Source: Deltaproteobacteria bacterium
Lineage (GTDB): Bacteria > Desulfobacterota > Binatia > Binatales > Binataceae
Length of the DNA: 64,000 nt
Assembly: GCA_021780755.1 (NCBI GenBank)
Contig: JAJXYF010000039.1
Span: forward strand, 11,529 to 75,528
Reading direction: 5' to 3'
Shown here: piece after piece, positions 14,256 to 25,635 of the stretch
How positions within the stretch are numbered: position 1 is the first letter of the stretch
Layout of the letters: the number at the start of each line of letters is the position of its first letter
The notes under the pieces: model-generated
Databases searched by the model: none
What the model was told of the DNA's origin: nothing
Seen by the model: the letters and a program-made list of their open reading frames with translations, nothing else
Program-made: the position numbers and the translations under genes

Positions 14256-16476
14256 TTCCGCTTCCCGCGTCGATGTGGTTCGCGCGCGGCGCCCGGTTGC
14301 TCCAATAGTCATACGCGACGCGAATCGCCGCCGCCGATCGCTCGAAGCTGTCGAACACCACCAACCCCCGTTCACGCGCGAGTTGTTTCGCCCGCGCAAC
14401 GATCGCCTCGACATGCGCCGGATGCAGTATCAAGACGAACGGTTTCGCCGACGCGCGTCCGAACTCCGCCACCCGGTCGAGCAGTCCCGTCAATTCCTCT
14501 TCGTGCGTCGCCCAGCGCTGCGCCCGCAATCCGGTGCCGACTTCGAGCACGATCGCGTCGATCGCCGCGTCGCGATCGAGAATCCGCAAGATGCGTTCGA
14601 GGTTCCCCGTATGGACCCCGCCGCCGATCGTGCCGCCGGCGTCGAGCGGATTTCGATAGCTGCCGCCGATGATGTTGAAGAAGCTCTTCAGCTCCTCGTA
14701 AGACTCCGCCGACAGCGCTGGTATCTCGAGCCCGGCGCTCGCAAAGGTGTCCGTAATTACCACCGACTGTCCGCCCGTCATCGCCACCAGTCCCATTCGC
14801 CGCCCGGTCACCGCCTTGCCCCGCGCCAGCATCTCCACCGCATCGAGCGTCGCGTCGAGTCCCGCCACGCTCACCGCCCCGCTCTGCCGCACCATAGTGG
14901 TCCACACCGCGGCCGGCGTCGCGAGCGATCCCGTATGCGAAAACGTCGCGCGCGCGCCCGCCTCCGTCATCCCGCCCTTCCACACCACCACCGGATGCGC
15001 CGCTGCCGCGCGCCTCAGGCTCTCGAAGAATCGCCGCCCGTCGCGCACCCCCTCGACGTACATGCCGATCACGCGCGTCGCCGGGTCCGCCGCCATCACG
15101 TCGATAAAGTCCGCCGCCTCGAGCATCAGCACGTTGCCGATCGACGCCGCCTTGTTGATTCGTATGCCGCGCGCCGGCGCTTGGGCGCAAAAATTAATCG
15201 AATGCGTACCGCTCTGCGAGATGAAACAGACGTCACCCGGATTGCCCGCCTCGAGCTCCGGAAAATTGCACAAGCCGATCGCCGGATTGTACAGCCCCAT
15301 GCAATTCGGACCGACCAGCGCGATGTCCGACGCCGTCGCCAGCGCCTTCAGCTCGCCCTCGAGCTTGATCCCGATCTCCTCCGTCGTCTCCGAAAAGCCC
15401 GACGTGAAAAACCCGATTCCACGCACCTCGTTCTCGATGCAGTCCTTCAGTATCCGCGGCGCCACCTGCCGCGGCACGGCGCTCACCGCGTAATCGATGG
15501 TCTCCGGCACCTCCGCCAGCGACTTCAGGTTGACCACGCCCAACGCTTCGATGCCGGGTATTTCGTTGGGATCGATCTGGATCGAATAGAGTTTGCCCGC
15601 GAAACGCTTCATCGCGCGCAGCCACATGTATCCGCCGACGCGCTTGTCCCCGATTACCGCCACCGTCTGCGCCGCCATCGCGCGCCGCAGGTTCTCCACG
15701 CGCCGGCCGTGCCGCTGCGGATCGCGGGCCGCCGGCGCCGCTTGCCGCAGGTTGTCGGCCGCAAGCAGGATCCGTGCGTCGAGTACCGCGAGACCCTGCT
15801 CGTAGGCGACGATCGGGTTGAGGTCCATTTCGATCAGATCGTCGCGGCGCGCCGCCAGTTCCGACAACCGCACCAGCACGTCCGCGATCGCGTCGAGGTC
15901 CGCCGGCCGCGCGCCGCGCGCTCCATGCAGCAGCGGAGCGCCGCGCAATTCGTCGAGCATCGCGCGCGCCGCGCGCCGATCGATTGGTGCCAGCCGCATT
16001 GCCGTGTCGTGCAGCACCTCGACGAAGATTCCGCCGAGCCCCACCACCACCAGCGGTCCGAACCGCTCGTCGCGCGAGATCCCGGCGATCAGCTCGACTC
16101 CCGGTCGCGCCTGCGGCTGCACCGCGACGCCGTCGAAATTCGCCCCCGGTATCCTTGCCGCCAGACCCCGCCGAATGCGCTCGAACGCGTCGCGCACTTC
16201 GCTCTCGGTGCGCAGGTTCAGCGCCACCCCGCCAACCTCGCTCTTGTGGCTGACTTCCGGCGAATGCACCTTGAGCACCACCGGGAACCCGATTCGGACC
16301 GCCGCCGCGGCGGCTTCGTCCGCACTGGCGGCAAACTCCGGGATCGCGGCAGGAATACCCGCCGCCGCGAGCATCCGCTTCGATTCGATCTCCGACAGCG
16401 CCGTGCGCCCCGCCGACACGGCCTCCGCGATCACCTGGTCAACGATTTTCTGGTCCACGTCTGTGGCGTATAGCAA
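14230..16476 (-). CDS. ADP-forming acyl/acetate--CoA ligase family (ATP-grasp domain N-terminal)
   Basis: GFPVVLK...HKSEVGGV, DLNP, then GPNCMG, SQSG, SHTGSLA (phospho-His), NPLD. Confidence 0.9.
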   Translation of the reverse strand: MLYATDVDQKIVDQVIAEAVSAGRTALSEIESKRMLAAAGIPAAIPEFAASADEAAAAAVRIGFPVVLKVHSPEVSHKSEVGGVALNLRTESEVRDAFERIRRGLAARIPGANFDGVAVQPQARPGVELIAGISRDERFGPLVVVGLGGIFVEVLHDTAMRLAPIDRRAARAMLDELRGAPLLHGARGARPADLDAIADVLVRLSELAARRDDLIEMDLNPIVAYEQGLAVLDARILLAADNLRQAAPAARDPQRHGRRVENLRRAMAAQTVAVIGDKRVGGYMWLRAMKRFAGKLYSIQIDPNEIPGIEALGVVNLKSLAEVPETIDYAVSAVPRQVAPRILKDCIENEVRGIGFFTSGFSETTEEIGIKLEGELKALATASDIALVGPNCMGLYNPAIGLCNFPELEAGNPGDVCFISQSGTHSINFCAQAPARGIRINKAASIGNVLMLEAADFIDVMAADPATRVIGMYVEGVRDGRRFFESLRRAAAAHPVVVWKGGMTEAGARATFSHTGSLATPAAVWTTMVRQSGAVSVAGLDATLDAVEMLARGKAVTGRRMGLVAMTGGQSVVITDTFASAGLEIPALSAESYEELKSFFNIIGGSYRNPLDAGGTIGGGVHTGNLERILRILDRDAAIDAIVLEVGTGLRAQRWATHEEELTGLLDRVAEFGRASAKPFVLILHPAHVEAIVARAKQLARERGLVVFDSFERSAAAIRVAYDYWSNRAPRANHIDAGSGISAGGSIR

Positions 16477-16507
16477 AGGACTTCGCTATTTGAAACGTGA
16501 CTCACCG

Positions 16508-17593
16508 ATGTCCCAACCTACGCCCACCCGCCACCGCGTTTTCGTCACCCGCCCGGTTGCCGACGCCGCGCTGCGCCGCCTCGCCGAGACCGCCCGCGTC
16601 GATCTGTGGGACGACGACGCATCGCCCCCGCATGACGAACTCGTGCTGCACCTGCGCGATTGCGACGCCGTCCTCAGCATGGTGAGCGATCGGCTCGACG
16701 CGCCAACTATCGCCGCCGCCCCGCGCCTGATCGCCATCAGCAACCTCGCCGTCGGTGTCGATAATATCGATCTTGCGGCCGCCACGCGCGCCCGCGTCGC
16801 CGTCGGCCATACCCCCGGCGTACTCTCGGAAACCACCGCTGACCTCGCCTTCGCCCTGCTTCTCGCCGCCGCGCGCCGCGTTGCCGAAAGCGACCGCTTC
16901 GTGCGCGCCGGCCGCTGGCGCATGTGGACGCCGCGGCTGATGCTCGGCCGCGACGTCTGGGGCGCCACCCTCGGCGTCATCGGATGGGGCAAGATTGGAC
17001 AGGCGGTCGCCCGCCGCGCGGCGGGCTTCGGGATGCGCGTGCTGTATGCCGCCCACCACTCGTCCGGGACCGGCACGCCCGCGAGATCAAAGCCGCGCGC
17101 CACCGCGAGCGCCGTCGCGATACCCGCGGCACCCGCTGCCGAATGCGTTGAGTTGCCCCGCTTGCTCGCCGAGTCCGATTTCATTTCGCTCAACGTCCCG
17201 CTCACGCCAACCACCCGCCATCTGATCGGTGTGCGCGAGCTAGCCGCGATGAAACGCGGGGCCATCCTCGTCAACACCGCGCGCGGCGCCGTCGTCGATC
17301 AGGCGGCGCTGGTCGAGTCGCTGCGCTCCGGACATCTCGGCGGCGCCGGCCTCGACGTCACCGAGACCGAGCCAATCGCCCTAAACGATCCCCTGCTCAA
17401 GCTGCCCAACGTCGTCATCACGCCGCACATCGGCAGCGCCAGCCACGCCACCCGTAATCGCATGGCCGAGTTGGCGGTGGACAACATCCTCGACGTGTTC
17501 GCCGGCCGCCTGCCGCGCCACTGCGCAAATCCCGCCGTGAAACTCGCATCGCCGAAACGCCCGCCACCGCCGGTCGCTCCGCGCCGAAAATAA
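16508..17593 (+). CDS. D-isomer 2-hydroxyacid dehydrogenase (glyoxylate reductase-like)
   Basis: AVGVDNID, TPGVL.ETTADL, GVIGWGKIG, VNTARG, LDVTETEP, TPHIGSA. Confidence 0.92.
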   Translation: MSQPTPTRHRVFVTRPVADAALRRLAETARVDLWDDDASPPHDELVLHLRDCDAVLSMVSDRLDAPTIAAAPRLIAISNLAVGVDNIDLAAATRARVAVGHTPGVLSETTADLAFALLLAAARRVAESDRFVRAGRWRMWTPRLMLGRDVWGATLGVIGWGKIGQAVARRAAGFGMRVLYAAHHSSGTGTPARSKPRATASAVAIPAAPAAECVELPRLLAESDFISLNVPLTPTTRHLIGVRELAAMKRGAILVNTARGAVVDQAALVESLRSGHLGGAGLDVTETEPIALNDPLLKLPNVVITPHIGSASHATRNRMAELAVDNILDVFAGRLPRHCANPAVKLASPKRPPPPVAPRRK

Positions 17594-17625
17594 AAGCGCC
17601 GGACCTCGGCGGGCCGGCGCCTTTT
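17592..17625. terminator. Bidirectional intrinsic terminator
   Basis: AAAAGCGCCGG...CCGGCGCCTTTT hairpin between convergent genes. Confidence 0.75.
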
Positions 17626-17651: not shown

Positions 17652-18788
17652 TTAATGCACCAGCACGACGTCGCCCTTGGCCCCATCGTCGGGCGCGTTA
17701 ATCGACCCGGTGCTGTCCGGGACGACCATATCGACAAACTCTCCGGTGACGGCGCCACCGCTCACGCTGGTAATGTAGAAGGCCATAAATCCGGTAATCG
17801 TGACATTGCACTGTCCAGTGCAGCCCGCGAAGTTTACCAGTGGCACAATGACAGCGCGCGGATCGCTTGGATTGAAGTTGCCGGGACTGGACGGACCAGC
17901 GACGCGATCGACGCTGAGGCCGTGCAAACCCTGATTCACCGGGCCGGTCTTAACACCCGGAAACGTCGTCAGTGTGTTTCCGATGCTGAGTTCACCATAG
18001 TAGCCGTTTGCCAGTGCGGTTCGAATTGCCGAACCACCACCCTTGCCTTGACCGCACAGGTCAACCAGTCCCCAGTTGCCCGGCGCGTCGGGCCAGGGAC
18101 CGTTGCCGTTGCCGGCGTCAACGCGGTTGAGAGTGTACGTCGTGCCGGGAGTAAACAGCGAGCCGGTCTGATTATCCACCGCAATCGGCAAAATGTTGTA
18201 CGCGCCGGTCGAGGAGCCGCAGCCTCCGGCAAATGGCGCGCCGCTGCCAGTCGCGCCACTACCAGCGGTTGCGGTGCCACTGGAAGTAGTGCATGCAACA
18301 CCACCGCACGAAACGGTGCTTCCAGGACCTCCGTTAACCGTACTCACAGCCGCGGGAACATTAGCAATCGCTGTCACCTTCACCAATCCGTCAGTCAGAC
18401 CGAGCACTCGTGCAAAGCTGTACGGAACCGTACGCTGAATCGTGACCTGCATCTGGGAGTTCGTATTGATCGGCGTCGCGGTAATTATATCGCTTGACAG
18501 GATGCCGTTCTGGGTCGCGTAACTCTGCGCGGTGGAAGTCGCCGTGCTGGTGTCGTTCGGCAGATAGTTCGCGCCCGCCAGTGCCGCCGCGTCCGCCGCC
18601 TTCTGGAGCTGTCCCCAGTTGTAGTAAAGCACTCCAACGTCCGCGCCCAGCGCCATCACCCCGACCAGCGCCACCGCCGCCAGCACAAAAACGACCGCAA
18701 ATTGGCCTCGCTCATGCGCCGGAAAGCGGCGTCGCAGTCGTTGCCCCGCCCGAGTCGGTTCCCTCCCCTTCGAGTCAGTGGTTCCCAT
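17652..18788 (-). CDS. TadG-like pilus-associated protein (paralog 1)
   Basis: RGQFAVVF...DVGVLYYNWGQLQKAADAAALAGA Tad N-terminus; C-terminal GNWG..GGG..IGNTL.T.PG.KTGP domain. Confidence 0.85.
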   Translation of the reverse strand: MGTTDSKGREPTRAGQRLRRRFPAHERGQFAVVFVLAAVALVGVMALGADVGVLYYNWGQLQKAADAAALAGANYLPNDTSTATSTAQSYATQNGILSSDIITATPINTNSQMQVTIQRTVPYSFARVLGLTDGLVKVTAIANVPAAVSTVNGGPGSTVSCGGVACTTSSGTATAGSGATGSGAPFAGGCGSSTGAYNILPIAVDNQTGSLFTPGTTYTLNRVDAGNGNGPWPDAPGNWGLVDLCGQGKGGGSAIRTALANGYYGELSIGNTLTTFPGVKTGPVNQGLHGLSVDRVAGPSSPGNFNPSDPRAVIVPLVNFAGCTGQCNVTITGFMAFYITSVSGGAVTGEFVDMVVPDSTGSINAPDDGAKGDVVLVH

Positions 18789-18878
18789 AGGCTTTAAGTT
18801 TCTCCGCAATGGTTTGAGAGCGACGCTCTGATTTCTCGCGATGCGATCGCGAGCCAAACCGTTATGTGGAGTGCTTAG

Positions 18879-18893
18879 GCAGCTAATGTGCCA
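18879..18893 (-). promoter_or_regulatory. Putative sigma54 promoter of TadG paralog 1
   Basis: Minus strand TGGCAC-ATTAG-CTGC (GG-N10-GC), about 90 bp upstream of the ATG. Confidence 0.55.
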
Positions 18894-19003
18894 TGAAATT
18901 GCCCATCTATCTCACGGTATCTTAGGCGACGATGACATCAGCGCGAGCAAGAAAGCCCACCTGTTGCAGCAGCGCAACGACCCCGGGTGAAATCTTTAAA
19001 TGC

Positions 19004-19033
19004 GAAGCGGGCCGTCTCTCGACAGCCCGCTCC
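19004..19033. terminator. Hairpin, likely terminator of the decayed TadG copy
   Basis: GCGGGCCGTC-TCTC-GACAGCCCGC just downstream (minus strand) of the remnant stop codon. Confidence 0.45.
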
Positions 19034-19064
19034 TTCGTAACTCGGGGTTGAGTCAGGCGCCGAA

Positions 19065-19195
19065 CTAATGCACCAGCAAGATGTCGCCCATCGCGCCGTC
19101 GTTCAATGCGGTCACGCTGCAGACCGCATTCGGAATCACCAGGCCAATGTCCTGTACTGAGATCGCACCCCATTGACGTCCGGGATGAAAACCAC
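19065..19195 (-). pseudogene. Frameshifted 3' remnant of a fifth TadG-like gene
   Basis: Translates VVFIPDVNG/(frameshift)GAISVQDIGLVIPNAVCSVTALNDGAMGDILLVH*; gap-free match to the paralog 1 end GAVTGEFVDMVVPDSTGSINAPDDGAKGDVVLVH* (14/34 identical). Confidence 0.8.
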
Positions 19196-19399
19196 ACTGC
19201 GCATAACCTTTCAGGATCCTATCCGGGCCGCGCCACACTTCGGCTAATGCACCTTACACATTCTGGGCTTTCCTAACGTTTAACCAGCCCATCTCGTTTG
19301 AGAGCAGCCACATCATCCCAATGCAACACATTTGTTTCAGTATAGCCACTAAAGACCCGTCGTACCAACGGCTTAGTGACGCATTTAGACTGTTTTGCA

Positions 19400-19414
19400 C
19401 GGCATTGATATTGC
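19400..19414 (+). promoter_or_regulatory. Putative sigma54 promoter
   Basis: CGGCAT-TGATA-TTGC (GG-N10-GC), about 50 bp upstream of ATG 19466. Confidence 0.55.
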
Positions 19415-19465
19415 GTATCAAGCCATACGATGCAATCGCAAATTAGAGGCCTAACGAGGTATTCA

Positions 19466-19912
19466 ATGATAAAGAAAGTACTTTTGTTCCTATGCGCGCT
19501 TGGCTTAACGCCCACCCTTCAAGCTCATGCGAGTCCGACGAACAAGAAGATCACCCTAACTTGTAGTAGCGTCTCACCCGACGTGATCATCGGCCAAGTC
19601 GACGTAACGGTTTATGATAGCACTGGACAACTTTCCTATCCGTGCACCAACCTGTTGTCGTGTGACAGCAGCGGCACCGGTCAGGTCATTCCCGGCGCTT
19701 CTGCCACTAATTCAGCTTCTTGTACCCCTGGATTCCGAGTACAAAGCATGAGTTATACCTTGTATTATAGCGATTTCGACTACAGCACTAATCCGCCTAC
19801 CGCCATCGGAAGCAGCACTGTTACTGGGGCTGGGATAATCCTGAAAGGCCCTGCATTCTCGACCCAGGTCGGACCGAATTCAAACGACACCGTTACATTG
19901 GATGTGAAGTAA
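19466..19912 (+). CDS. Hypothetical secreted Ser/Thr/Cys-rich protein
   Basis: GAGG RBS; signal peptide MIKKVLLFLCALGLTPTLQAHA; 4 Cys in the mature part; followed by a hairpin. Confidence 0.7.
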   Translation: MIKKVLLFLCALGLTPTLQAHASPTNKKITLTCSSVSPDVIIGQVDVTVYDSTGQLSYPCTNLLSCDSSGTGQVIPGASATNSASCTPGFRVQSMSYTLYYSDFDYSTNPPTAIGSSTVTGAGIILKGPAFSTQVGPNSNDTVTLDVK

Positions 19913-19923
19913 GAGCCGACATT

Positions 19924-19953
19924 CCAGAGTCGCTGCAAATAGCGGCGACTCTG
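19924..19953 (+). terminator. Stem-loop after the secreted protein gene
   Basis: CCAGAGTCGCTGC-AAATA-GCGGCGACTCTGG. Confidence 0.55.
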
Positions 19954-20159
19954 GCCTCAGATCAACCATCGCCACCCCGCACGTCAAGGACGTCGATGGC
20001 CGTTGGTCAATACTTAAACGGCTATCGATCCCGCTGGGGTTTCGACACGTTTCGGCCTGATTTTTGCGTAAATAGCCTCCAGACAATCTAGATAATAGTC
20101 AAAGTCATCGGTGAGCAGCTTTGTCCTATCATAGATGTCAAAAGACGGAGGTTGGTGTG

Positions 20160-21461
20160 ATGATTCAGCGCACCGGTGTTGCAGTCGTGCGACAGAAGTT
20201 GAGATCGATGCAACGTGGCCAAGCGTTCCTCGTGGTGACCGCGGGATTGGTGGCCCTGCTCGGAATCGGGGCGTTGGCGATCGACGTCGGCGTCCTTTGG
20301 TCGACCAGGCGCCAGATGCAAAGCGCCGCGGATGCCGGCGCGATGGCGGGTGCGGATGCGATCGCGATCTCGGCCAGCACCGCCAATGTGACTAGTTCAG
20401 CTAAGGTCGCCACCGCGCAGAATGGTTTCACCGACGGTTCAAGTACGACACGCAGTTCATCCACGGTGTCGGTTGCTGTTTACAACCCGCCTCAGTCTGG
20501 ACCTTTTGCGACCAATTCGAACGCGGTCGAAGTAACTGTCAAACAGACTCAACCAACCTATTTCATGCGGGTATTGGGGTGGACCGGCGTTCCGGTCACC
20601 ACCGACGCTGTAGCCATCACGGTTTCGGGAGGCTCCTGCGTTTACGCTCTCGATCCGAGTAACCCCGGGGCGGTAACGGTCGCTGGCACTGGCAACCTCA
20701 ATTCCCAATGCGGCATCTACGACAATTCCGACAATTCTTCGGCGGCGCTCACGGTGAGCGGGGGCGGAACCATTCAGGCGCCACTGGTCGGGGTGGTGGG
20801 CGGGACTAACGTGAACGGCGGGGGCAGCACACCGCCGAGCACGGGGATCGCCGCGTTTGGCGATCCGCTGGCCTGGGTTCCCGAGCCGACCGTGCCAACC
20901 TGCAGCAGCTACAGTACGCTAAATATTAGTACTTCCCAGACGCTCTATCCCGGTGAGTACTGTGGAGGCCTTAAACTGAATGCGGGGGCCAGCGTCGTTT
21001 TCAGCCCGGGCACTTACATCATGAACGGCGGCGGATTGACAGTTGTGGGCGGCGCCACCGCCAGCGGCTCCAGCGTGACGTTTTTCCTGACCGGAGCGAA
21101 TAAAGCCAGCTCCAATCCGAGCAGCTATGGCGGAGTGAATATCGCCAGCGGGGCCAACGTGACCTTCAACGCTCCGTGTTCGTCAGGTTCAGGCGGGATC
21201 GAGGGCATGTTGTTCTTCCAAGACCGATCGATCCCCATCGGCGATGGCGTCGGAAGCACGATCAATGGCAGCTCGACCTCGACCTTCAACGGCGCGCTTT
21301 ATTTTCCGAGCACACTACTAAGTTACAGTGGGTCCTCAGGATCGGGATTTACACTGCTCGTCTCTTATGACCTTACGATCAACGGAACCACAAGTATCGG
21401 CAGTAACTACAGTTGTCTTTCCAACGGATCGCTTATCAAAAACGCGGCCCTGGTCCAGTAA
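20160..21461 (+). CDS. TadG-like pilus-associated protein (paralog 2, different C-terminal type)
   Basis: RGQAFLVV...IDVG...RRQMQSAADAGAMAGA; C-terminal CVYAL, PGEYCGG, PGTYI, GMLFFQDR, GALYFP. Confidence 0.87.
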   Translation: MIQRTGVAVVRQKLRSMQRGQAFLVVTAGLVALLGIGALAIDVGVLWSTRRQMQSAADAGAMAGADAIAISASTANVTSSAKVATAQNGFTDGSSTTRSSSTVSVAVYNPPQSGPFATNSNAVEVTVKQTQPTYFMRVLGWTGVPVTTDAVAITVSGGSCVYALDPSNPGAVTVAGTGNLNSQCGIYDNSDNSSAALTVSGGGTIQAPLVGVVGGTNVNGGGSTPPSTGIAAFGDPLAWVPEPTVPTCSSYSTLNISTSQTLYPGEYCGGLKLNAGASVVFSPGTYIMNGGGLTVVGGATASGSSVTFFLTGANKASSNPSSYGGVNIASGANVTFNAPCSSGSGGIEGMLFFQDRSIPIGDGVGSTINGSSTSTFNGALYFPSTLLSYSGSSGSGFTLLVSYDLTINGTTSIGSNYSCLSNGSLIKNAALVQ

Positions 21462-21473
21462 AGGAGGGAAATC

Positions 21474-21902
21474 ATGGCTTTGCGCAGAAAGATGGAGAAG
21501 GGGCAGAGCATGCTCGAACTGGCCCTGATGTTGCCGGCGCTCGCGCTGCTACTTGTCCTGGTGGCCGATTTCGCCCGGGTGTTCTATGCGTCCATAAGCC
21601 TCGCCAGTGCCGCTCGCTCGGGCGTTCAATACGGGGCACAGAACTACACGACCGCGATTAACTTCAGTTCGATACAACAAGCGGCGCTGAATGACGGACA
21701 AAACATCAGTGGCATTTCCGCGCAGGCGACCGACTTCTGCCTGTGTGATGGCAATAAGGTTGCTTGTAGTCCGCCGCAATGCGCGGAACCCGAACTCTTT
21801 GTGCAGGTTCAGACTACGGCAACCTTTCATACGCTGCTGTCGTATCCGGGGGTTCCCTCCCAGTTTCCGCTCACTTCGACGGCGGTAATGGAGGTTCAGT
21901 AG
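21474..21902 (+). CDS. TadE-like minor pilin
   Basis: KGQSMLELALMLP (prepilin G/xxxxE), SAARSGVQYG; AAGGAGG RBS. Confidence 0.88.
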   Translation: MALRRKMEKGQSMLELALMLPALALLLVLVADFARVFYASISLASAARSGVQYGAQNYTTAINFSSIQQAALNDGQNISGISAQATDFCLCDGNKVACSPPQCAEPELFVQVQTTATFHTLLSYPGVPSQFPLTSTAVMEVQ

Positions 21903-22340
21903 ATGATGCTCCCAATTTCCGTACAGCGCCGGCAACCGATGCCGGTTCCTCGCCGATGGGGGCGCGGACAGACGGCCGCCGAGTTCGCATTCATGGGGCT
22001 GCCGTTGCTGTTTCTTGTTTTTGCCACTATCGGGATGGGCATGGCGATCTATGGTTACAGCTTCGTTTGTACGGCAGCGCGCGACGCCACCCGATATGCA
22101 ATTGTTCACGGTGCTTCCAGTACGTCGCCGGCAACCCAAGCCGATCTGACGACGTTGGTACAGAATGAAGCACAAGGCATTCAGGCCAGTCAGCTTAGCG
22201 TATCGGCCTCCTGGACCCCCGATAACAAACCGGGAAGCGTAGTGGCGGTTACTGTGACCTACAATTTCCATCCGTTGAGTTCTTTCGGGGGGATGACATT
22301 GCCGCTCTCAAGCTCGGCAGAGATGGTGATTAGCAGGTAG
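21903..22340 (+). CDS. TadE-like minor pilin
   Basis: RGQTAAEFAF..LP, AARDATRYAIVHG, VAVTVTYNF. Confidence 0.88.
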   Translation: MMLPISVQRRQPMPVPRRWGRGQTAAEFAFMGLPLLFLVFATIGMGMAIYGYSFVCTAARDATRYAIVHGASSTSPATQADLTTLVQNEAQGIQASQLSVSASWTPDNKPGSVVAVTVTYNFHPLSSFGGMTLPLSSSAEMVISR

Positions 22341-22566
22341 GAATCGAGATCGATCAGCTCGATTCCGCGGCGGGATCTTATTACGCGATGTTGACTAACG
22401 GAGCGGACACAACCGGCCGTTGGCCATGCGGAACTCCGATTGGGTGCGGGGTCGGGGGTCGAATCGAATTGTGGAGAGGATTAGCCGTCCGGCGGGCGAT
22501 TGAGTGCAAGGGAAAGGGTCGCGGCCCTTCCGGACCACGACCACTACCATGAAAAGATCTGGCGGT

Positions 22567-23658
22567 TTACTGAATAAGAACCGGTCTTCCGAGAGAGCCT
22601 AGCGCAGGCGCCCCGGTTCCCCCGGCCGTCTGCGAGCCAACCTCCGAAACGAAACAGCCAGTTATTGTCGCGTTCGAAGCCTGTCCGCTAGCGCTGAGGC
22701 CCGTCAGATAGACCTCCGCGAATCCTGTCACTGTAACGCTACAAGTTCCATTTGTGCAGGTTGACATATCAGCGACTGGCACTGTGACCAGGAGCGGATC
22801 GCCTGGTGGTATATTGTCAGGATTATTTCCGGCGCAGACGCTGCTCGGTGTCACGCTGCTCAAGGCATTATGCTCCGCCAACAAATCAGTCCAAGCTTGG
22901 TTCACCGGTCCATCCTTACCGCCAGTTACTGTGCTCAGCGAAGACCCGACACTTACTGACCCGCTGTATCCGCCTTCGATTGCAGTTTTGAGCTGATTCC
23001 CTCCTTGACCTTGTCCAACATTGAGCCAGCCCCAGTTTCCTCCCGCACAACTGTTCCCGCCAGGTGGTGTGCTAGATGGGCACTGCGGCGTCGGGGAAAA
23101 CTTCACCCCGAAACTCGCCGGCTGTCCGAAATTCAAAGTGCTAAGACTGCACGTCGCAGTGGGGCAGTTGAACACTGCCGGGAAGATCCCGTTCGCCGAT
23201 TGTGTCGGCAAGACCGCGGCGGTCGCCAAGACCGTCACCTGACCAGTATTGAGGCCAATTACCTTCCCGAAGAAATACGGAAGTGTGCGGTTGACCGACA
23301 TTGAAACCTGCGTGTTCGCCGGATTTACGGTCGTGAAAAGAATCTTGTCTGTGTAATTAGCTATGGAACTCGGTGATGGACAGACCGTTTTTGCGGTGTT
23401 GCTTGGATCGTTAACGCCGTTCAGGCAGGCGTATCCATTCGCGTATGTCACCGCATTTGCCGCTGCTGTCGCATCGGGCTGCCCAGTCAATTTACCGGCG
23501 CCGGCCAGCGCTCCAGCATCAGCAGCCTTCTGCATCTGAAGATAATTGTAATAGAGCACCCCGACGTCCGTCCCCAACGCCATCACGCCCAGCAACGTCG
23601 CGATCGCCAACGTCATTACGACGGCCATCTGGCCCTTGCGAAACTTTCCGAGCTTCAT
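22567..23658 (-). CDS. TadG-like pilus-associated protein (paralog 3)
   Basis: MKLGKFRKGQMAVVMTLAIATLLG...QKAADAGALAGA; GNWGWL; AGGAG RBS. Confidence 0.87.
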   Translation of the reverse strand: MKLGKFRKGQMAVVMTLAIATLLGVMALGTDVGVLYYNYLQMQKAADAGALAGAGKLTGQPDATAAANAVTYANGYACLNGVNDPSNTAKTVCPSPSSIANYTDKILFTTVNPANTQVSMSVNRTLPYFFGKVIGLNTGQVTVLATAAVLPTQSANGIFPAVFNCPTATCSLSTLNFGQPASFGVKFSPTPQCPSSTPPGGNSCAGGNWGWLNVGQGQGGNQLKTAIEGGYSGSVSVGSSLSTVTGGKDGPVNQAWTDLLAEHNALSSVTPSSVCAGNNPDNIPPGDPLLVTVPVADMSTCTNGTCSVTVTGFAEVYLTGLSASGQASNATITGCFVSEVGSQTAGGTGAPALGSLGRPVLIQ

Positions 23659-23777
23659 TGCCCCTTCTCCTGAGCGTCCGAACGCCCGAGCTTCGTAACT
23701 GTTAGAACCGTTCATTTCTTTATGCGAGACTTGTTTCATGCGTGATACGGATTGTGCGCTCAAGCCACCGAGTGTCA

Positions 23778-23807
23778 CATAATCGAACTTTGTCAAAGGC
23801 CTGTCAA
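23778..23807 (-). promoter_or_regulatory. Putative sigma70-type promoter of TadG paralog 3
   Basis: Minus strand TTGACA-N17-GATTAT; aligns without gaps to 25354-25383. Confidence 0.5.
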
Positions 23808-24025
23808 GAGACTCAAAGACCCCAGATGCATCTCTCGGCTGCAATTAAGCATATGTTAGGCGCATATCGGAATCGTAGGCTAAAATTGACCGAAATCGCT
23901 TGTCCATCGGTTACACTTCGCGACACTCATGTCCGGGCTTTTGGGGATTCTCCGCCACGGATCAGGATGACGGCGGCGAAAGGCCAGGCCCCTCGCGAGC
24001 ATGGGAAAGGCAGTCCGCATAAGCA

Positions 24026-24058
24026 ACGGGCCGCGCTCCAATCTGGAACGCGGCCCGT
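24026..24058. terminator. Hairpin downstream of TadG paralog 4
   Basis: ACGGGCCGCGCTCCA-ATC-TGGAACGCGGCCCGT. Confidence 0.5.
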
Positions 24059-24196
24059 CTCGCGATCGCAGTCGCGCCAACCCTTATCGCATCACGCCGG
24101 CGCCTTTACACGCGCCTCCCTCACCCCCTCAGCCAGCCCCTCTACACCAGCCCCCCAAAGCCGCTCCCCTCCCCTCGTCGCGGACACCGACCCCGG

Positions 24197-25231
24197 TTAC
24201 TTTACGATGTAGGGCGGGATGTACGCGCCGTAACTGGTGGTTCCGCCGCCGGCCGTGGCGTTCTTGGTGAGGAACTGCACGAACTGCACGGTCAGTACCT
24301 GATTGCTGCCTTGCTTCGAGATACTGTCGATCCACACCTCGGCGAAGCCCAACACCGTCACCTGGCTTGCGCCGTTGACGTTGCCCCAATTCACGATCGG
24401 CACCGTCACCAGTTGCGATTCACTGCCGGTCAAGGTTGACGGCAGGCTCCCGGCCGTGATCAAGCTATTGACGGCGCTTTGCACCGGACCCCAATCCTCG
24501 CCGGTCTTGGTCGCTATCACGTCGCCGATCTTGATACTGCAAGTGCATCCGTTGGTGATATTGGTGTTCAGCAGTGAAGCGCCGCCCGCGTTGGTGGGGC
24601 TTTGCGCATCGGTCCAGCCGTTGGGAAGGTTAAGCCAGCCCCAATTTCCGGGGCCATAGCTGTCGGTCATCGAGAAGGTGGTGCCGTAGGTGAGCGCGTT
24701 CATGTTGGGCGTCGCGGGTATCCCGGCCGGGAACAGTCCATTATTGATCGCCGAGACCGGCGTCGGCGCCACCGCGATCGAAGTCGCGACCGCGCTGTAG
24801 GGATTGCCGCGGCCGAGCACGCGCATGAAAAAGACCGGGATATTGGTGCGCTTCAACGTGACCTGGATGGTCTGCGCGCCCGCCGGCACTCCCACCGGCA
24901 CGACTTGCGCTGGCACGTAGATTCCGCCCTGCGTCAGGTCGGTCAGCTGCGCGAAATTGGTCAAGGCATAGGTGCAGGCAACGTTCTGCTGCTGCGTCGG
25001 ATAGGCGCACGCCCCGTTAAGCGTCGGCGTCGGCAGCGTCTGCGTACTATTCTGCGCCAGAAAGTAGGTTGCGCCGGCCAGCGACGCGGCGTCCGCCGCC
25101 TTCTGCAACTGCATCCAGTTGTAATAGAGCACCCCGACGTCGGTGCTGAGCGATATCACGCCCAGGATCGTCGCGATCGCCAGCGTCATCACCACGGCCA
25201 TCTGGCCTTTGCGGAATTTGGGCAATCTCAT
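24197..25231 (-). CDS. TadG-like pilus-associated protein (paralog 4)
   Basis: MRLPKFRKGQMAVVMTLAIATILG...QKAADAASLAGA; GNWGWL, GFAEVWI; AGGAG RBS. Confidence 0.87.
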   Translation of the reverse strand: MRLPKFRKGQMAVVMTLAIATILGVISLSTDVGVLYYNWMQLQKAADAASLAGATYFLAQNSTQTLPTPTLNGACAYPTQQQNVACTYALTNFAQLTDLTQGGIYVPAQVVPVGVPAGAQTIQVTLKRTNIPVFFMRVLGRGNPYSAVATSIAVAPTPVSAINNGLFPAGIPATPNMNALTYGTTFSMTDSYGPGNWGWLNLPNGWTDAQSPTNAGGASLLNTNITNGCTCSIKIGDVIATKTGEDWGPVQSAVNSLITAGSLPSTLTGSESQLVTVPIVNWGNVNGASQVTVLGFAEVWIDSISKQGSNQVLTVQFVQFLTKNATAGGGTTSYGAYIPPYIVK

Positions 25232-25353
25232 CGATCGTTCTCCTGAGAGTCCGACCGCCCGCGCGTGTTCGCGATAATGTCCGTTGATAGCTTTCCTGTC
25301 CGGGGATGGTTTCAACGCTGCTACGGGAAGTTCGGTACAGATACGGACTGTTT

Positions 25354-25383
25354 CATCATTGAACCTTTCTTAGGCGCTGTCAA
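25354..25383 (-). promoter_or_regulatory. Putative sigma70-type promoter of TadG paralog 4
   Basis: Minus strand TTGACA-N17-AATGAT; homologous to 23778-23807; AT-rich tract upstream. Confidence 0.5.
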
Positions 25384-25635
25384 CTGAGTAATTTCATTTA
25401 ATTATACTATTTAGTAGTAATTAGAGTTAATTACGAAAAATAAGAGTCAATTAGACCAATCTCCACCGCGTGTAACGTACCGTGGAGCGGAGTAGATTAT
25501 CGACAGTGAAAGACAGCGTCAGACGGTAAGAAGGTCAATCCAATGTGAGGTTTTCTGAGAACGAAGCCGGCGCGTCCCCGGCGGCAATCGAGCGACGCGA
25601 ACCTAGCCCACGGTCGGCATGGAATGCCGTAATGC

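Follow-up and report, generated by a model that had tools for sequence, protein, structure and literature searches.

The window analysed here is a 64,000-nucleotide (nt) stretch of contig JAJXYF010000039.1, and all coordinates below are window positions. At 17652-25460, between a 2-hydroxyacid dehydrogenase gene and hisA/hisB, it holds a slot of seven genes and one gene wreck, which encodes putative minor pilins related to the TadG and TadE proteins of Tad pili. Four large proteins, P1 to P4, score above the cut-off of PF13400 (Tad), with E values of 1.5e-7, 3.3e-8, 1.5e-6 and 3.8e-7, respectively, and both small proteins score above that of PF07811 (TadE), with E values of 6.9e-10 for TadE1 and 6.8e-9 for TadE2. 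P1 (17652-18788), P3 (22567-23658) and P4 (24197-25234) are encoded on the minus strand and are TadG-like proteins of one type, termed type A. Their open reading frames (ORFs) are extensible to 18857 (401 amino acids (aa) at most), 23844 and 25315, respectively; the likely starts are 18788, 23658 and 25234, and that of P3 gives 363 aa, the length of database record P0001. On the plus strand P2 (20121-21461, 446 aa), a TadG-like protein of type B, is the first gene of a trio with TadE1 (21474-21902, 142 aa) and the TadF-like second small protein TadE2 (21903-22340, 145 aa), whose start codon abuts the TadE1 stop with zero bases between them. The units of the slot face different directions and are separated by spacers of 226-538 bases.

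The ORF and Pfam scans bear out the first-pass annotation, which had listed four intact TadG-like and two TadE-like genes in mixed orientations and had seen no flp, tad core, peptidase or recombinase gene among them. Pfam recognized no family besides PF13400, PF07811 and PF09977 in 16 slot ORFs of at least 90 aa (shadow ORFs 17969-18304 and 20165-20464 set aside), including none for a Tad motor, Flp, secretin, peptidase, recombinase or integrase, and nine shadow ORFs of the segment matched no Pfam family. An NCBIfam scan of the slot proteins gave nothing but sub-threshold matches to TIGR03816, and a search of the window for tRNA genes found none. Two features are added to the earlier gene list, a decayed fifth type-A TadG (19068-19169, minus strand) and a gene for a 160-aa protein with a Sec-type signal peptide (19430-19912, plus strand) that was blank in Pfam and NCBIfam. 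Only the last 34 codons of the decayed gene are recognizable. Its translation is 41% identical by tblastn to the last 34 residues of P1 (E 9e-7, calculated against this small region), and the DNA shows direct repeat D4 between it and the P1 3' end (37 nt at 84%).

P1, P3 and P4 share one architecture with three further TadG-like proteins of the genome, encoded on contigs C30, C33 and C40 (alignment A1). A junction of Gly and Gln (G/Q) is followed by a conserved N-terminal helix and a sheet module, and then by a C-terminal domain that carries the anchors GNWG, GPV, VP and GF; the constant N-terminus and short anchors noted at first pass are thus confirmed. Among P1, P3 and P4 the helix is 61-76% identical and the remainder 22-36%. 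P1 has its own Gly/Ser/Thr-rich insert, and P3 contains 10 cysteines. The predicted structure of P3, built from a 62-row alignment (predicted local distance difference test (pLDDT) 81.7, predicted template modelling score (pTM) 0.78), has a helix at residues 8-54 and four strands ahead of a C-terminal alpha/beta domain. An Atlas model of this domain matches clusters named TadG-related with template modelling (TM) scores of 0.68-0.76; the nearest has 516 members, mostly from Candidatus Binatota. An exhaustive sequence search with the domain retrieved 130 cluster representatives at E <=0.001, 22 of them at <=1e-10, and most of the matches are at the C-terminus of proteins of 290-390 aa. Since no Pfam family covers it and no solved structure is clearly related, the type-A C-terminal domain is a candidate for a domain entry. 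Stretches matching part of the type-A domain (query residues ~82-157) are repeated 8-10 times in three much longer proteins of 959-1653 aa (P0113, P0150 and P0184).

Two other assignments of the large proteins were considered and rejected. The best match of the P3 model in VIA-align was to inositol monophosphatases, at Z 7.3, a level that the tool rates as a common arrangement. Membership in the class of CpaL and TadG proteins that carry a von Willebrand A (vWA) domain with a MIDAS (metal ion-dependent adhesion site) motif is argued against by a Pfam scan of P1-P4 that was free of vWA families and by loose D.[ST].[ST] strings only, with none in P4, which thus has no DxSxS-type motif. The wide VIA-align search of the P3 model also gave no vWA row.

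P2 differs from the type-A proteins in its C-terminal part. It matches PF09977 (E 4.6e-9) in addition to PF13400, and its model (pLDDT 85.6, pTM 0.76) has a type-A-like front end followed by a long C-terminal run of short strands in a beta-solenoid-like domain. Foldseek gave no row at E <=0.001 for this model, and its weak rows were to beta-helix ice-binding proteins (E 0.013), pectate lyases and ComZ (E 0.08). ComZ, a competence pilin of the type IVa system of Thermus thermophilus, is located at the pilus tip. In the P2 model, as in the structure of ComZ (PDB 6qvi), a large beta-solenoid is joined to a pilin module, yet the Foldseek row (E 0.08-0.12, TM 0.16-0.18) is weak and the likeness is one of fold. 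In a 28-row alignment of TadE1 (A3), G10, Q11, E15 and the four cysteines C89, C91, C98 and C103 are invariant. TadE1 matches were found in 65 of 81 genomes of the family (61 of 77 when four unpublished genomes are left aside), and the order P2-like, TadE1, TadE2 on one strand was kept in all 27 published loci fetched; in G016 the trio is ~6 kb from a CpaF gene. Given this conservation, P2 and the TadE pair are most likely the standard three-gene TadE/F/G-like minor-pilin set of the family. The earlier proposal that P2 has its own C-terminal type and groups with the TadE pair therefore stands, but not the view of P2 as one variant among four.

The hisA slot in related genomes

Candidatus Binataceae and Binatus appear in the record titles of the closest homologs, and the lineage is most likely Candidatus Binataceae. 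Type-A matches were present in 27 of 41 related genomes sampled, with 1-11 matches per genome in those 27. The slot itself was compared in ten regions chosen by their TadG matches and in two named loci, a selection that does not give an unbiased frequency. Seven genomes (G002, G004, G006, G008, G009, L026 and G023, which belongs to another genus) have TadG-like genes immediately next to hisA, and on contigs that extend far enough these genes are flanked by hisA on one side and by the same dehydrogenase gene on the other.

The content of the slot varies across relatives from two to four TadG-like genes, with or without the trio. G006 has, on one strand, P3-clade, P4-clade and P1-clade genes followed by a P2-like gene and two TadE genes. 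The slots of G008 and G002 contain no P1-clade gene, and neither does that of L026, whose contig ends right after the P2-like gene. G009 has P1-clade and P3-clade genes only, without the trio, and G004 has a P4 ortholog (80% identical) beside hisA and a truncated P3 ortholog (219-aa ORF). The order is hisA-P4-P3 in the genome studied here (G000) and in G004, and hisA-P3-P4 in G006, G008, G002 and L026. The slot genes of the latter four are co-directional, with spacers of 216-250 bases as measured in G006, and the trio is inverted only in G000, in contrast to the four relatives that have it in their slot. Copy number, order, orientation and loss thus differ across relatives, and the invariant locus that would have counted against the first-pass annotation was not seen.

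A maximum-likelihood tree of 28 type-A proteins places P1, P3 and P4 in three separate ortholog clades, with support of 100/100, 91/91 and 100/98, respectively. The P1 clade includes the G009 and G006 copies. Of the copies outside the slot, that of C30 is the sister of the P4 clade, and those of C33 and C40 form a pair. Since the position beside hisA and the ortholog clades are shared and content and order are varied, the slot is old and vertically inherited, and it has been reshuffled by loss, decay, swap and inversion. The earlier description of the locus as an island, in the sense of foreign DNA, does not agree with TadG-like genes beside hisA in seven relatives and with the old ortholog clades of P1, P3 and P4. 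The slot genes diverge faster than their neighbours. Compared with G006, identity is 73% for hisA, 74% for hisB, 76-80% for the further flanks and 63-69% for the dehydrogenase; it is 60% for P1, 59% for P2, 60% for TadE1, 49% for TadE2, 47% for P4 and 41% for P3. With proteins 40-80% identical, saturation of synonymous sites is to be expected.

The base composition of the slot is lower in G+C (GC) than that of its surroundings, as was first noted by eye and is upheld by a profile in 1-kb windows (0.52-0.63 inside and 0.66-0.70 in the flanks, with a genome value of 0.623). The dip is owed largely to the spacers (0.49-0.60) and to the gene of the 160-aa protein (0.497, the lowest of the segment). 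Among 2377 long ORFs of the genome, GC at third codon positions (GC3) ranks P1 at percentile 23, P2 at 23, TadE1 at 24, TadE2 at 13, P3 at 7 and P4 at 90. TadG-like genes elsewhere in the genome are similar in GC to the slot copies, so low GC is a trait of the TadG gene family and the spacers and not a sign of foreign DNA. The conserved 5' ends of the genes form direct repeats of 144-224 nt with 67-75% identity, and the inverted repeats of the region are 19-28 nt only, with 73-84% identity.

Tad machinery and prepilin junctions in the genome

The assembly (3.9 Mb in 42 contigs, 94.8% complete) encodes eight PF13400 proteins, four in the slot and one each on C30, C33, C35 and C40. Two CpaF-type ATPases are each part of a Tad core locus. 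The C35 core encodes Flp, a short TadG of 168 aa, a second Flp, TadE, CpaB, a secretin, TadZ, CpaF, TadB, TadC and a sigma-54 response regulator. The C33 core begins with a type-A TadG, followed by Flp, TadZ, CpaF, TadB, TadC and a TPR protein. A further Flp is encoded on C42. All genome-wide matches to T2SSE, Flp and peptidase A24 are on contigs other than that of the slot, and PF07811 matches are limited to the two slot genes, one on C35 and one sub-threshold match inside the C30 TadG. Sigma-54 activators adjoin two of the tad loci. The supposition that Tad pilus machinery is encoded elsewhere in the genome is therefore correct, and the search for a tad core that was suggested with it located two, on C35 and C33.

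The association of type-A proteins with Tad machinery extends beyond this genome. In 7 of 12 loci of type-A homologs, CpaB, TadZ, CpaF, TadB or TadC is encoded within 10 kb; ten of the 12 loci come from distant or family-level relatives and two from one same-genus genome. The homologs adjacent to core genes include those of Bacillota (Dethiobacteria, Thermincola and Sporomusaceae). Among same-genus genomes, CpaF is 91-93% identical in four of the five searched. G004 (93% complete) gave no CpaF-type match with the C35 CpaF as query, which could be due to an assembly gap or to a lineage that lost its motors. Flp genes are present in G004, as are a short TadG, the trio and type-A genes.

The junctions at which prepilins would be cleaved are alike in all these proteins, which carry a class III signal in which a short basic leader with a terminal Gly precedes a hydrophobic helix. 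The Flp junctions of C33 and C35 read G/QTMTEY and G/QTMSEY, that of TadE1 reads KG/QSMLE and that of TadE2 RG/QTAAEF (alignment A4), and both small proteins have Glu at +5. In all eight TadG-like proteins G and Q are invariant, the hydrophobic helix that follows lacks Glu5, and Val is at +5. Cap subunits such as GspK are known to lack Glu5. Val at +5 in the TadG-like proteins is thus what a subunit at the very top of a filament would be expected to have, a correspondence that by itself would neither prove nor exclude membership in the minor pilins. Because the G/Q junction is common to Flp, TadE1, TadE2 and all eight TadG-like proteins, it can be argued that one peptidase serves them all. A genome-wide search for A24 peptidases found one, of the PilD type.

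Possible roles of the slot proteins

The slot is interpreted, on balance, as a store of alternative cap subunits for Tad pili whose motors are encoded elsewhere, the additional heads having no TadE pair of their own. The region downstream of hisB-hisA would be the minor-pilin gene slot of the lineage. The conserved trio would most likely form the standard priming and tip complex of a Tad pilus, and P1, P3 and P4 are old divergent type-A paralogs, kept beside the wreck of another. All would be made as prepilins with an Flp-type G/Q site and inserted into the inner membrane by the N-terminal helix, and the Tad motors of C35 (with CpaB and secretin) and of C33 (with a type-A TadG as its first gene) would then use them. 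Small minor pilins may serve as a base whose cap can be any of the type-A proteins, each presenting a C-terminal domain of its own. In this way pili of different surface specificities could be made by one or two motors, with each head produced from its own unit.

A complex prediction is consistent with docking of a type-A head on the TadE pair. Mature TadE1, TadE2 and P3, each supplied with its alignment, scored 0.51, and the highest of three controls scored 0.05. In calibration, 116 of 157 solved complexes reached the mark, as did 2 of 215 mismatches, and a score <=0.60 was seen in only 18 of the 157 solved complexes and in both passing mismatches. Contacts agreed by at least 74% among three runs, and partner pLDDT was at least 70. 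The modelling of each TadG with the TadE pair, advised at first pass, was thus carried out for P3 alone, where the result stands above the controls but has a weak score.

Interchangeable tips are known from the Kil (Tad-like) pilus of Myxococcus xanthus, which has four KilL/KilM/KilN Tips, Tip1-4 (Herrou et al. 2025, PMC12075869). As in that system, paralogous TadE/F/G-like minor pilins are encoded here apart from the motors (slot, C30 and C40 versus C33 and C35), and the large TadG-like subunit has a variable C-terminal domain, which in Kil is disulfide-rich and modelled at the pilus extremity (PMC12075869). Each Kil Tip comprises the full three genes, whereas here P2 alone has a TadE pair and P1, P3, P4 and the C30 copy are lone heads. 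The tip1-4 genes are reported there to be restricted to Myxococcota, and no predatory context or link to T3SS* is known for the lineage studied here; the likeness to the Kil system is one of gene sets and design. In Caulobacter crescentus, CpaL is modelled alongside CpaJ and CpaK at the tip of the Tad pilus (PMC12607857). CpaL is likewise a large minor-pilin-like protein, with a pilin module and an extra domain, that accompanies two small minor pilins. It has a vWA domain with a MIDAS motif and is a single protein in Caulobacter, unlike P1-P4, which have no vWA family, and the eight TadG-like proteins of this genome. Bdellovibrio bacteriovorus has a lone tadG, apart from its tad core loci, for what is described as a pilus tip protein, its function tested by CRISPR interference (CRISPRi) (bioRxiv 10.64898/2026.07.08.737194). 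That report concerns a single gene, and the array described here is known from genes alone. The type IVa pilus of Myxococcus has three differentially expressed sets of PilY1 and minor pilins (PMC9109919), that is, alternative tips for one machine chosen by regulation, as is proposed here. Those sets are type IVa, with PilY1 as a non-pilin adhesin and full minor-pilin sets, unlike the lone heads of the slot.

The idea of interchangeable Tad tips is already published for Myxococcus (PMC12075869), and the slot is a modest extension of it; what differs here is the multiplication of the large subunit alone. Judged by titles and abstracts, the literature on pili in Binatota held nothing on the topic, and among the papers listed for TadG paralogs and minor pilins, titles and abstract beginnings described no array of lone TadG genes, although the supplements of PMC12075869 may list Binatota tad genes. 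If the interpretation is true, diversification of Tad pili by swapping cap subunits is not peculiar to predatory Myxococcota but occurs also in Binatota, a phylum known only from metagenomes, in a form that multiplies only the large head. The hisA-side slot, with its old and fast-diverging clades, is also a natural comparative data set for distinguishing constant from variable parts of TadG heads, the N-terminal helix and the GNWG, GPV, VP and GF anchors being candidates for the constant parts. The finding is otherwise ordinary.

Several results weigh against alternative cap subunits. Every Myxococcus Tip has a TadE/F pair, and the type-A genes are without one of their own. No peptidase of the TadV/CpaA type was found in the 94.8%-complete genome. 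The models show a long helix and a beta sheet, but matches of P3 to solved pilins are weak: Foldseek against the PDB gave no row at E <=0.001 (best 0.08), and pilin rows in VIA-align reached Z 4.3-4.7, inside the stated noise range of the tool. The support given by the predicted P3-TadE1-TadE2 complex is weak, and since the controls were unrelated proteins rather than other pilins, the score could also reflect generic bundling of pilin helices. The co-directional, closely spaced arrays of the relatives fit as well with one operon whose products act together. The old P1, P3 and P4 clades, kept across species, suggest distinct, non-redundant roles rather than a freely exchangeable library. Finally, signals for separate regulation are at chance level. 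The region contains 5 promoter-like (sigma-70) sites, versus 3.5 +/- 1.9 in shuffled sequences, and 9 terminator-like sites, versus 8.6 +/- 3.5, and the sigma-54 motif is unenriched in the window (24 matches, 23.5 expected). The statement of the first-pass annotation that most units show their own promoter or terminator is thus not sustained by the counts, though the positions partly fit P3, P4 and P1.

The strongest competing explanation is that the slot proteins are made together and have fixed places or roles, either in one priming and tip complex or in one per Tad machine, and that species differ through slow loss and gain. This is the main rival, and it is considered unlikely though far from negligible. 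It would account for the arrays of G006, G008, G002 and L026, which are closely spaced and co-directional downstream of hisA, and for the age of the orthologous P1, P3 and P4 clades, and it agrees with the presence of two Tad motors and with other copies that adjoin a motor (C33) or a small pilin (C40). A fixed set of parts is harder to reconcile with slots that vary within one genus, given that the P1 clade is missing from those of G008, G002 and L026 and the trio from that of G009, with the decayed copy in G000 and the truncated one in G004, or with the G000 units, which point in different directions across spacers of 226-538 bases. To our knowledge, eight TadG-like proteins for two motors exceed the needs of any described Tad tip.

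It is also possible, at a similarly low level of confidence, that a single TadE/TadE pair serves as one base on which any of seven or eight TadG-like heads dock. The heads would be the three of the slot, the C30, C33 and C40 copies and P2, and two motors would then produce combinatorial tips under separate control. If true, this would be a leaner design than the three-gene Tips of Myxococcus, found in non-predatory, uncultured Binatota from mine drainage.

A distinctly less probable explanation is that the type-A proteins are not filament subunits at all but bitopic assembly or anchoring factors of the inner membrane, with paralogs that serve the two motors or different conditions. TadG was reportedly first described in Aggregatibacter as an inner-membrane factor for assembly or anchoring of the Tad machine. 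The absence of Glu5 is compatible with this role, the N-terminal helix could serve simply to anchor the protein in the membrane, and the P3 model has no clear match to solved pilins. However, the invariant G-Q junction, which the Flp and TadE proteins of this genome share in identical form, argues for processing as a pilin, as do the helix-plus-sheet module of the models and, more weakly, the predicted complex with the TadE pair (0.51 vs 0.05). The outer domains are rich in cysteine and fast-evolving, and TadG, CpaL and KilN have been modelled at the tip in two reports (PMC12075869, PMC12607857).

A horizontally acquired island, or a cassette system of the shufflon or gene-conversion kind, is largely refuted and very improbable: GC below that of the flanks, mixed orientations, the direct repeats at the conserved 5' ends and a trio inverted relative to relatives would fit such an origin, but an island is rejected by the hisA-side TadG-like genes of seven relatives, including another genus, by the lack of a tRNA gene and of an integrase family and by the similar GC of the other TadG-like genes, an invertible locus by the lack of any recombinase family in the 16 ORFs and the shortness of the inverted repeats, and cassette exchange by the divergence of the paralogs, which are 22-36% identical outside the helix.

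Environmental matches and minor features

Metagenomes from mine drainage match the window. The four runs compared were kept as assembled contigs, which indicate presence only, and carry-over of DNA is possible in the RNA libraries; neither a ranking of expression nor rare rearrangements can therefore be read from them. RNA-library contigs of one metatranscriptome study (runs X6, X9 and X10) lie mainly on P3 (22567-23773), and further contigs of the three libraries cover the P2/TadE1 junction (21401-21625), the end of TadE2 (22295-22497) and the decayed gene (18986-19204), where the X6 contig has several differences and a 49-base skip. No RNA-library contig lies on P1 or P4, which proves nothing with contigs only. 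DNA run X3 reproduces the junctions from P1 through the decayed gene to the 160-aa gene and from there to P2, and has a strain-level insertion of 3 bases at 18275, inside the Gly/Ser/Thr-rich insert of P1. A DNA joint of 20366 to 23506 was rejected as a rearrangement, its sides being only 21 letters with long loose ends, and is taken for a contig of another organism or of a paralog that matches a short GC-rich palindrome (repeats I4 and I9).

Individual regulatory sites are leads and not evidence. Of the five promoter-like sites, four are found upstream of P4 or P3: two sigma-70-like matches (10/12 each) at 25355-25430, in the AT-rich 401-base spacer between hisA and P4 (GC 0.49), and two at 23751-23807, all on the minus strand. 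Terminator-like hairpins follow the stop codons of P3 and P1 on the same strand, one of 11 pairs (8 G-C) at 22517-22542, between the convergent P3 and TadE2 genes, and one with a T-rich tail at 17597-17611. A sigma-54 match at 18878-18893 (minus strand), upstream of P1, has no weight by itself.

The 160-aa protein is probably not a pilin but the product of an inserted passenger beside the inverted trio. Its gene is at GC3 percentile 2, and 5 of 40 relatives have homologs of 31-42% identity, none of them at this locus. In the flank of the slot, the 591-aa dehydrogenase ORF (15818-17593) overlaps a 732-aa ORF (14275-16473) in a different frame, and tblastn over the overlap gave matches in both frames in relatives. 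Since the dehydrogenase Pfam domains begin only at residue 241 of the ORF, the true start is probably near 16500.

Other contigs provided further observations. On C40 (L015, 5482-8769) a sigma-54 activator, a 152-aa ORF and the type-A TadG follow in that order. The 152-aa ORF is blank in Pfam and has a pilin-like start, RG/IAVFE, with Glu at +5, and an AmoC-family gene (PF04896) lies 1.5 kb upstream of this set. Directly upstream of the Tad locus of C33 (L013, 4345-7964) are genes for a 574-aa protein with a BNR-like match below the cut-off and for a 628-aa protein in which three Big_5 domains accompany a beta-helix domain of the Ice_binding-like kind (PF11999); weak rows for ice-binding beta-helices were also obtained with the P2 head. 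At C15:183626-184411, a PF00437 (T2SSE) match of 140.7 bits is interrupted by two in-frame TGA codons and may represent a broken PilT-like gene or two genes.

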